From: a virus
Taxonomy: Duplodnaviria > Caudoviricetes
Length of the DNA stretch: 64,000 bases
Virus record (IMG/VR): IMGVR_UViG_3300033066_001917
Location: 128,001 to 192,000 of that record
Strand: one strand, 5' to 3'
Shown: piece after piece, positions 35,607 to 53,914 of the stretch
Layout of the letters: every line of letters starts with the position of its first letter
Position numbering within the stretch: position 1 is the stretch's first letter
Program-made: the position numbers and the translations under genes
The notes under the pieces: model-generated
Seen by the model: only the letters and a program-made list of their open reading frames with translations
What the model was told of the DNA's origin: nothing
Database searches by the model: none

Positions 35607-36285
35607 CTACTTCTGGACCGTGTATCGACCACTCAAATAATCCTTGAGTCGGAATTTCTGGCCCGTTGGATGGTAGGTTACACGATCATTTTGAACTTGA
35701 ACGGTCCAGTTTTTGTCCCCCCGTTGACCCGTTCCGATCTGCGACCTCCTATCCTTAGACCGTTGCTGATGCTCTCGTTCCTGGATGGATTGCCAGATCC
35801 TGGACCGAAGGAATCCCAAAGCTAGAATTTTGTTCTGATTCTGAGATCGTTCGGATTCACAGTGAACTACCACACCAGTAGGGACGTGCTTAAGGTCTAC
35901 CGCGGTTTCAGTTTTGTTTTTGTTCTGACCACCGGGACCAGATCCACGAGAAAACGTCCACTCCAGATCATTCGGGTGGATTGTCAACTGTGTTTGTGTT
36001 GGTTCGGGAAGTACCGACACGGTTACGGTTGACGTTTGAGTCCTCCCCCTTTTTTCATTCGGGGGTACTCTCTGCCACCTGTGGCCACCAATCTCTGGTT
36101 GAAGCAATTCCTCGGCCCTATCACCGATGACCTTGAACGAGATCGAACCCGTTCTAATGTCTAAGACCTCAAGGTCAAAGACCCTCCAGGCCAACCTTCT
36201 TCGCAAGTACAGAAAACTGCTCGTGAACTAAGTCTTTGGCATCATCGCCGCCTTCTGCGGCTCGAATTTCTACGTGTACACTCAT
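35607..36285 (-). CDS. class I peptide chain release factor (RF1-like, lacks domain 1), +1 programmed frameshift at 36180-36174; ~225 aa
   Basis: GGAGG RBS, MSVHVEIRAAEGGDDA...GL, then CTT TGA C; +1 frame gives EIGGHRWQRVPPNEKRGR and GSGPGGQNKNK. Confidence 0.9.
36174..36188 (-). promoter_or_regulatory. prfB-type +1 ribosomal frameshift signal
   Basis: TGGAGG-GT-CTT-TGA-C. Confidence 0.85.
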
Positions 36286-36364
36286 GATGTGAACCTCCAA
36301 AGAAGAGGAGAAAGAGAACGAAAAACAATACCATTACGCTTCCGGTGGGTAGGTGGTAAAGATA

Positions 36365-37135
36365 TTAACCCTTAGAGGTACGAAGAGTTAGGGTTGGTAG
36401 ATATGTTTCTGAGGGTTGACGAATCCACTGGACGAAATTGGGTGGCACGTGATGTGGGTCCACGGATATCATGTGGGCACGCTGACTTCTCGCAATCCCC
36501 ATCACAGCATCAGTCAAGGATACTGAAAACGATGTCCCCACAAACAAAACAGTTTTGGCGTTGTAGACGGCTTCTTGAATTGCGTCGAACTGATACGAAC
36601 AATGATCCTCGTAAAACTCGTCAAACAGCAAAGCATGAGGCCGAAGAATGGAATGACATCTTGGACACTTAGGGAGGTTATCCAAAGTGGGATGGTCAAG
36701 AAATCTATTCCAGTCGCTAGAATGATAGGTCAATAGCCCATTCGGGCTACCAAAAAGGCAACCATAGTCGGAAGAGCATCTAACTCGATCCGCGGATCCA
36801 TGAGCTTTGATGGGCTTAGACCCGGCCTGCTCGTGGAGAGTGTCCACGTTTTGGGTCACTAAGGTGAACTTGAAGGGATAAGACTTCTCCAAATCTGCTA
36901 ATGCAAAATGTGCCGCATTCGGCTCTTTTTCTAGAATGGACCCAAAACGATGGAGGTACCATTGCCAGAACTCAACCGGGTTATTCCGAAAAAATGCATT
37001 TGTGGCCAGATCCGTGACATCTTTTGACCATATTGCATCGGGATCTTTCCCCCGAAACGTAGGTATCCCACTGGCTAGACTAATACCGGCCCCCGTGACA
37101 ACGACGAGGTCCCCTGAGAGTTCAATGCTGTTCAT
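36365..37135 (-). CDS. cobB: Sir2-family NAD-dependent deacylase (CobB-like)
   Basis: TGAGISLASGIPTFRG, TQNVDTLHEQAG, HGS, CxxC, VGTS. Confidence 0.9.
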   Translation of the reverse strand: MNSIELSGDLVVVTGAGISLASGIPTFRGKDPDAIWSKDVTDLATNAFFRNNPVEFWQWYLHRFGSILEKEPNAAHFALADLEKSYPFKFTLVTQNVDTLHEQAGSKPIKAHGSADRVRCSSDYGCLFGSPNGLLTYHSSDWNRFLDHPTLDNLPKCPRCHSILRPHALLFDEFYEDHCSYQFDAIQEAVYNAKTVLFVGTSFSVSLTDAVMGIARSQRAHMISVDPHHVPPNFVQWIRQPSETYLPTLTLRTSKG

Positions 37136-53634: not shown

Positions 53635-53711
53635 TGGTGCTTGCAGAGGGACTCGAACCCTCACTGTCCAGATCCTAAGTCTGGTGCCTCCTGCCATTGG
53701 GCTATACAAGC
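53635..53711 (-). tRNA. tRNA-Leu(TAG), short variable loop
   Basis: CCAGA-CTTAGGA-TCTGG, CCA. Confidence 0.9.
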
Positions 53712-53837: not shown

Positions 53838-53914
53838 GGTGCACACGGTGGGATTCGAACCCACACTGTCTAGTACCTCAAACTAGCGCCTCCTAACCTT
53901 TGGGCTACGTGTGC
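53838..53914 (-). tRNA. tRNA-Leu(GAG), short variable loop
   Basis: CTAGT-TTGAGGT-ACTAG. Confidence 0.9.

Follow-up and report, generated by a model that had tools for sequence, protein, structure and literature searches.

A short RF1-type release factor gene of large phages with a conserved prfB-like +1 shift site

Layout of the gene

The analysed window, a stretch of 64 kb, corresponds to bases 128001-192000 of a 200,245-bp phage record from IMG/VR, which is estimated to be about 38% complete. The record contains a single gene with release factor domains, located at window positions 36285-35607 on the minus strand; all features of this gene given below are on the same strand. The start codon ATG (36285-36283) is preceded at a distance of 8 nt by a Shine-Dalgarno (SD) sequence GGAGG (36298-36294). 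The first reading frame, ORF1 (frame 0, 36285-36178), has 36 sense codons from the ATG to a slippery CTT and codes for the start of release factor domain 2 (MSVHVEIRAAEGG...VGLEGL), with the motif EIRAAEGG (36270-36247) in the opening part of that domain. An in-frame stop near 36303, just 5′ of the ATG, excludes a longer N-terminus and with it a domain 1.

ORF1 ends in GGAGG-GT-CTT-TGA-C (36187-36174). This cassette consists of an internal SD-like GGAGG (36187-36183), a GT spacer (36182-36181) which places it 2 nt ahead of the slippery P-site codon CTT (36180-36178), the 0-frame stop TGA (36177-36175), and a C directly 3′ of the stop (36174), so that the shift site CTT-TGA-C spans 36180-36174. 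A motif of the form GGAGG-N1-4-CTTTGAC occurs once in the 64-kb window, while 0.07 matches are expected by chance. The second reading frame, ORF2, lies in the +1 frame (36176-35607) and is open throughout its 189 codons, from GAC at 36176 to the stop TAG (35609-35607). It codes for the rest of domain 2, for domain 3 with the catalytic GGQ, and for domain 4.

When CTT-T is read as one +1 step, the two frames join to a product of 225 aa, for which the junction peptide VGLEGLDLEVLDIR is predicted. An earlier note on this DNA had described the start codon with its ribosome binding site, the 36-codon frame with the terminal cassette, and a +1 shift leading into the ORF that ends at 35607. All of these elements are present in the sequence, and the joined product has the expected length and is colinear with RF1.

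The joined protein corresponds to domains 2-4 of RF1

In the joined protein, the Pfam PCRF model matches residues 2-89 and covers model positions 101-194 of 194 only, while the Pfam RF-1 model matches residues 98-205. The NCBIfam RF1 model gives one unbroken match over residues 2-219 which runs across the junction. In a phmmer comparison with PDB, the RF1 proteins from Thermotoga maritima and E. coli are aligned without a gap at the junction. L36, encoded by the CTT codon, aligns with a conserved Trp of RF1 and D37 with the residue following it. The ORF1 part is itself aligned gap-free to RF1 from T. maritima.

NCBIfam scores are about 190 bits for RF1 (189.8 and 189.3), 130 bits for RF2, 83 bits for PrfH and 51 bits for ArfB. 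All four fall under the curated equivalog cut-offs, which are 400 and 423 for RF1 (TIGR00019 and NF001859), 167 for PrfH (TIGR03072) and 100 for ArfB (NF006718). The protein is not RF2, as the SPF tripeptide of that factor (TIGR00020) is absent from it and the RF1 model scores higher. PrfH was rejected on its score and because the 200-kb record does not code for RtcB. ArfB was rejected because only the GGQ region matches and a domain 2/4 superdomain is present. The protein is not a canonical full-length RF1 (prfA) either, as it lacks domain 1, scores far below the RF1 cut-offs and has PPN rather than PxT in its recognition loop.

For structure prediction, the natural uninterrupted homologue P0013 (62% identical) was used in place of the window protein. 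Its predicted fold has a pLDDT of 89, and the model superimposes on domains 2-4 of ribosome-bound RF1 with a TM score of 0.93 and an rmsd of 1.5 Å. The corresponding TM scores of the model are about 0.88 for RF2 and 0.68 for PrfH. The shift site maps to the domain 2 loop that connects helix alpha-5 to the strand following it. The earlier note had placed it in domain 2 and not in domain 1 as in prfB; this holds, and because of this location the site is not homologous to that of prfB or inherited from it.

The GGQ motif (residues 118-120, 35933-35925) is intact in the joined protein. Together with the partial PCRF match and the RF1 score, this agrees with the description of the product as an RF1-like factor without domain 1. 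At the place of the RF1 PxT motif the window protein has PPN (residues 74-76, 36065-36057). An RF1-like loop reading PPN had been reported in the note, and for the window this is correct, but PPN is a minority variant, shared with five other homologues, while most members of the family have the RF1-type PPT. The Gln and Thr which read the third base are retained in the loop. Family members have GGDD at the tip of alpha-5 where RF1 has GG(D/E)E, and about 40% of them, including the window protein, have GR-x-Q-TS where RF1 has GR-I-H-TS. From its sequence, the RF1-like loop (PPN in the window, PPT in the family) is predicted to recognise UAA and UAG and not UGA.

Domain 1 is the part of class-I release factors that contacts RF3. 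Mora and co-workers (2003, Mol Microbiol) are reported to have removed the N-terminal domain from E. coli RF1 and to have found that the protein stays active and supports growth, while cooperation with RF3 is lost. If so, a natural RF1 without domain 1 is plausible as a working terminator.

The shift site is conserved among phage homologues

Among GenBank phages, the best tblastn match was to LR745208, a huge uncultured phage of 485 kb, and it started only at residue 36. Despite a protein identity of only 44%, the DNA of this phage has the arrangement ...CGGAGGGGT-CTT-TGA-CC at the codon where the window has its shift site. In IMG/VR, 80 loci were found by a scan, most of them on contigs between 50 and 470 kb long; in each of them, the motifs EIR..GG and GGQ and their frames were located. 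When IMG/VR and INPHARED are taken together, a +1 shift is required at the identical codon, exactly the 31st after the E of EIR, in 56 of about 80 classifiable phage loci, with homologues of 31-55% identity. These 56 loci represent 49 unique sequence contexts. Of the remaining phage loci, about 20 have an in-frame stop and 4 are uninterrupted.

Over the 49 unique contexts, CTT-T is 98-100% invariant. This includes the third position of CTT, while ordinary third positions are conserved to 35-50%. The consensus of the +1 class is CGGAGGGGT-CTT-TGA-C; 35 contexts have TGA as the 0-frame stop, 12 have TAG and 2 have TAA, and the stop is followed by C in 76%. Up to the shift site, conservation follows the three-base rhythm of frame 0, and after it that of frame +1. 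In L083 and L085 (60-66% identity) TCTTTGAC is kept within diverged flanks, and their gene calls contain a 37-aa ORF1 which overlaps ORF2. Of the motif GGAGG-N2/3-CTTTGAC, the conservation of which the note had suggested to check in phage homologues, CTT-T is kept at the same codon throughout the +1 class, while GGAGG and TGA are found in many of its members.

Of the frameshift genes, 59% have an SD match of 5 nt or more ahead of the site; at the aligned place, this holds for 5% of the phage homologues without a frameshift and for 12% of prfA genes from bacteria. Some of the frameshift homologues have no recognisable SD sequence. In E. coli prfB, the spacer between SD and CUU is 3 nt. The same length is found in 25 of 27 unique GGAGG sites of the family, and the window is one of the two sites with 2 nt. 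The spacing had been noted as about 1 nt short, and it is; because of this shorter spacer, shift efficiency may be lower in the window.

Among the 120 nearest metagenome protein clusters, 82 ORF2-type calls extend past the site, and 77 of these carry the signature xF(D/E/S/N) which results from CTT-T(GA/AG/AA); 9 clusters are uninterrupted. In most database entries the gene callers give ORF2 alone. This annotation is what speaks for two separate genes, with ORF2 translated from an internal start (e.g. TTG at 36206) and thus without the alpha-5 helix, and with ORF1 unrelated to it. But in all uninterrupted homologues the ORF2 part is preceded by the RF1 segment for which ORF1 codes. ORF1 is also conserved as a protein in frame 0, and 56 loci share the codon at which it ends. 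The sequence ahead of the TTG shows no SD. We consider two genes very improbable.

Even fainter is the chance that the frame break is an assembly indel or belongs to a decaying pseudogene. Assembly errors most often take the form of single-base frame breaks, but here the break recurs at the same codon, with an invariant CTT-T-stop, in 49 unique contexts that stem from independent metagenomes and also on bacterial chromosomes. The frame break is thus not an indel, and a pseudogene is at odds with purifying selection on both halves. Judged from the homologous sequences, the +1 device is deeply conserved, and the homologue pattern cannot be explained by an indel, a pseudogene or two unrelated genes.

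Copies on bacterial chromosomes

Through a named protein match, the same short gene was found with CGT-CTT-TGA-C on a contig of a Myxococcaceae MAG. This copy (in genome G001) is located 7 kb from rpmE-DUF1385-prfA, and the 9.4-Mb genome also codes for prfA and prfB. The chromosomal short factor occurs in 5 of 121 sampled genomes of this Myxococcales-type order (L249 and L252-L255, in G001, G054, G082, G075 and G117). All five copies have the CTT-TGA-C cassette, at a local GC content of 0.68-0.72. One of them, L255, carries an insertion of about 29 codons ahead of the shift site. The matches listed in an alignment scan of genome contigs were taken up by ordinary full-length prfA genes with at most 43% identity, all of them continuous. 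The note had spoken of a phage release factor, but the device is not restricted to phages, as the same cassette is found on Myxococcales-type chromosomes.

The phage record and the surroundings of the gene

TGA ends 55% of the long ORFs of the phage, TAA 25% and TAG 20%. An alternative genetic code finds no support in the phage: reading any one stop as sense lifts the coding density from 0.84 to only 0.86-0.90, and the gain is greatest for TGA, as expected for the commonest stop. Because TGA ends 55% of the ORFs, the TGA at the shift site is a stop and not a sense codon.

There are 29 tRNA genes in the window and 37 in the record. Two of those in the window code for tRNA-Leu(GAG) (53838-53914, minus strand), which would read the slippery CUU, and for tRNA-Leu(UAG) (53635-53711, minus strand). 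Outside the window, the same record codes for a tRNA with a CUA anticodon, an amber suppressor (L256:77-150, corresponding to G000:C1:94376-94449, minus strand). It was called by ARAGORN and scores 42 bits with the Rfam tRNA model, while about 20% of the long ORFs still end in TAG. An RF1-type factor would compete with this tRNA at UAG. A tmRNA with the tag peptide ANDNDVPAFAAAA is also encoded outside the window (L257:106-479, corresponding to G000:C1:39905-40278; Rfam 101 bits).

Directly upstream of the release factor gene is a Sir2-family gene (36365-37135, minus strand; Pfam PF02146, E-value 1e-28), which is not conserved in related loci. Pfam searches gave no match for the other neighbours of the gene. 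There is no conserved neighbour or partner, since no family is found beside the release factor gene in more than 7 of the about 80 loci. One larger neighbour cluster across loci turned out to be an antisense ORF artefact.

A possible gauge of termination

We consider it likely that this is one gene, coding for a 225-aa RF1-type factor without domain 1, the synthesis of which passes a prfB-style +1 gate that gauges termination capacity. When the ribosome reaches the cassette, tRNA-Leu would be paired with CUU in the P site while UGA-C, a weak stop, would await a release factor in the A site. The internal GGAGG would pair with 16S rRNA, and this SD:anti-SD pairing would aid the slip, in which the peptidyl-tRNA-Leu re-pairs from CUU to UUU and decoding continues at GAC. 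Release at UGA would yield only a 36-aa peptide. As the slip would compete with release, output of the factor would go up when termination at UGA is slow, and its yield would be inversely coupled to the efficiency of termination at the shift-site stop. While colinearity with RF1, the anatomy of the gene and the deep conservation of the cassette are observed, we infer by analogy with prfB how the slip proceeds, that it depends on release factors and which codons the product recognises.

That gene and product correspond to a domain-1-less RF1-like factor made through a prfB-style +1 frameshift, as the note had proposed, is well in line with the colinearity and with the conservation among homologues. 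The further proposal, that of a UGA sensor, can be retained in part. TGA is the stop in the window and in 35 of the 49 contexts, but TAG and TAA also occur, in close relatives with identical recognition loops. Because the loop resembles that of RF1 and shows no covariation with the stop, the UGA version, including that of the window, probably gauges the RF2 of the host and not its own product, while the UAG and UAA versions could be truly autoregulatory.

Several points count against this reading. With an RF1-type product and UGA as the gate, a simple negative feedback loop cannot be closed. The window departs from the common 3-nt spacer, and the SD sequence is not recognisable in all frameshift homologues. 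Finally, the repeated exchange of TGA and TAG without a change in the loop makes it uncertain which factor is sensed.

Exchange of the stop codon at the shift site

In a maximum-likelihood tree, the frameshift class covers most of the family. On well-supported branches, TGA and TAG have been swapped at least four times, for example between L025 and L034 and between L016 and L011 with L013. The uninterrupted genes L008 and L009 are nested among frameshifted genes, beside L012. Covariation with the type of stop is limited to one alignment column, the codon that is formed by the last two bases of the stop itself; it codes for D/E after T-GA and for S after T-AG, and simply reflects the stop. At residue 65 there is a weak trend from L/A to T with the type of stop, which is not exclusive. 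Recognition loops are identical among close relatives which differ in having TGA or TAG/TAA.

In TGA-type loci, 49% of the genes end with TGA and the GC content is higher, while in TAG-type loci 32% end with TGA and 24% with TAG; as the loci are not independent, this can be taken as a trend only. TAA is the commonest stop at gene ends in the lower-GC phages of the set.

The note had also considered an altered codon specificity as explanation for the stop at the shift site. The occurrence of TAG and TAA in close relatives with identical loops speaks against this and fits a general gauge of termination efficiency. A wider variant is a factor of broadened specificity, which also reads UGA, or reads all three stops, so that every cassette would provide negative feedback. 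It would remove an oddity of the preferred reading, a gauge that cannot be reset by its own product, and the free change of the shift-site stop among relatives with identical loops would be accounted for. The departures from RF1, which are GGDD, GR-x-Q-TS and, in the window, N for T of PxT, could also be seen in this light. But the loop is RF1-like overall, with a PPT consensus and with Gln and Thr kept, the RF1 model scores 190 bits vs 130 bits for RF2, and no residue covaries with the type of stop save in the stop-formed codon. We thus regard broadened specificity as rather unlikely. It would make the short factor an omnipotent, or at least a UGA-reading, bacterial-type class-I release factor with self-sensing UGA, UAG and UAA cassettes, and a one-protein, RF3-independent termination system in huge phages and some myxobacteria, for which we see a small chance.

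Sister genes L004 (1501-2145, CTA-TGA-CTG) and L005 (1501-2154, TAT-TAG-ATG) have an in-frame stop at the shift codon, so that no frameshift is needed. Their flanks use TGA and TAG, respectively, as ordinary stops. The two may represent a readthrough-gated variant of the same gauge.

These sister genes bear on another explanation, which is that the frameshift occurs at a fixed ratio without sensing anything. The yield of the factor would then be low and constant, or the 36-aa peptide would be a second product, and the stop would act as a slow codon. Toleration of all three stops at the site agrees with this, as does the origin of the uninterrupted L008 and L009 within the frameshift clade without a visible compensating change. 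However, L004 and L005, by having a stop at the same codon, keep a stop-dependent gate and drop the slip. TAA is the stop which is read by both RF1 and RF2; it is rare at the site (2 of 49), even though it ends more genes than either of the other stops in the lower-GC phages. The C which follows the stop in 76% of the contexts provides a weak termination context. A fixed ratio is in our view doubtful, and we prefer a gate that responds to termination.

Several other variants were encountered. In a low-GC subclade (L060, L066, L072-L075, L079 and L080), an in-frame TGA takes the place of the Trp conserved in RF1, about 90 nt after EIR and one codon ahead of the shift position, and L002, L052 and L053 have TGA at Trp or other aromatic positions. 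In L136 and L137, none of 17 ORFs ends with TGA. Most likely, the in-frame TGA of the low-GC genes reflects phages in which TGA is recoded to Trp and which carry an RF1-type factor. In L001 (1392-2049), L082 and L010, four residues of the recognition loop are lost (RT----SNGR or HAPT----GK compared to RVPPTEKRGR) while the cassette is kept; their codon recognition may differ. The shift site of L038 is TTT-TAG instead of CTT-TAG. In L042, otherwise nearly the same as L031, the frame is broken a second time at a site without CTT, probably by an assembly indel. A genuine tandem pair of shift sites does not occur among these loci.

Relation to known systems

The +1 frameshift of prfB is a textbook case of translational autoregulation. 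The device described here shares with prfB (RF2) the internal SD, the slippery CUU codon, a UGA followed by C and a release factor gene as the carrier; the family consensus, but not the window itself, also shares the 3-nt SD spacer. Differences are that the carrier in the window is of RF1 type and that the site is at codon 36-37 of a protein without domain 1 and not in domain 1. In addition, relatives of the window gene may use TAG or TAA, and the UGA version is probably not self-sensing. Among the 8,164 prfB motifs of a 2025 survey, TAG did not occur (PMC12421855). The same survey of more than 12,000 genomes reported no programmed frameshift in prfA, and a 2016 review on recoding refers to an RF1/UAG counterpart of the prfB device as 'unknown' (PMC5009743). 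Our full-text searches of the literature did not return a description of an RF1-type frameshift device, and a review of release factor evolution does not cover the short RF1-type family.

With prfA (RF1) the family shares fold and sequence of domains 2-4, the GGQ motif and, in its consensus, a PxT-type loop, while the window protein differs in having no domain 1, in its score and in PPN. PrfH (RF-H), which is paired with RtcB, is likewise a short homologue of class-I release factors without domain 1. Unlike PrfH, the window protein keeps an RF1-type stop-recognition loop; it also differs in its low PrfH score, in its structural distance and in the lack of RtcB.

The release factor gene of a giant virus for which readthrough and frameshifting are invoked is reportedly of the eukaryotic type. 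According to a citation in the recoding review, it is a gene of a giant amoeba virus that needs both processes (cited in PMC5009743). Huge phages code for RF1 and RF2 (PMC7162821), and RF1 is found in the TGA-recoded Jade phages (bioRxiv 10.1101/2021.08.26.457843). Those phage papers mention neither a frameshift nor a missing domain 1 for the release factor genes. Jade phages are TGA-recoded, whereas in the phage of the window the code is standard and TGA is the main stop.

Taken as proposed here, the short RF1-type family would be the RF1 counterpart of the prfB device, at an independent site and with interchangeable UGA, UAG and UAA sensors. The interchangeable stops represent a natural experiment on what is sensed by the stop at the shift site, and a release factor without domain 1 provides a test of how such a factor works without RF3. 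The family also provides an entry point for studying how termination is managed by huge phages during infection. For annotation, it offers a correction to hundreds of database entries of the family which are annotated as truncated ORF2 products. The myxobacterial copies may open the system to genetics if a culturable carrier is found.
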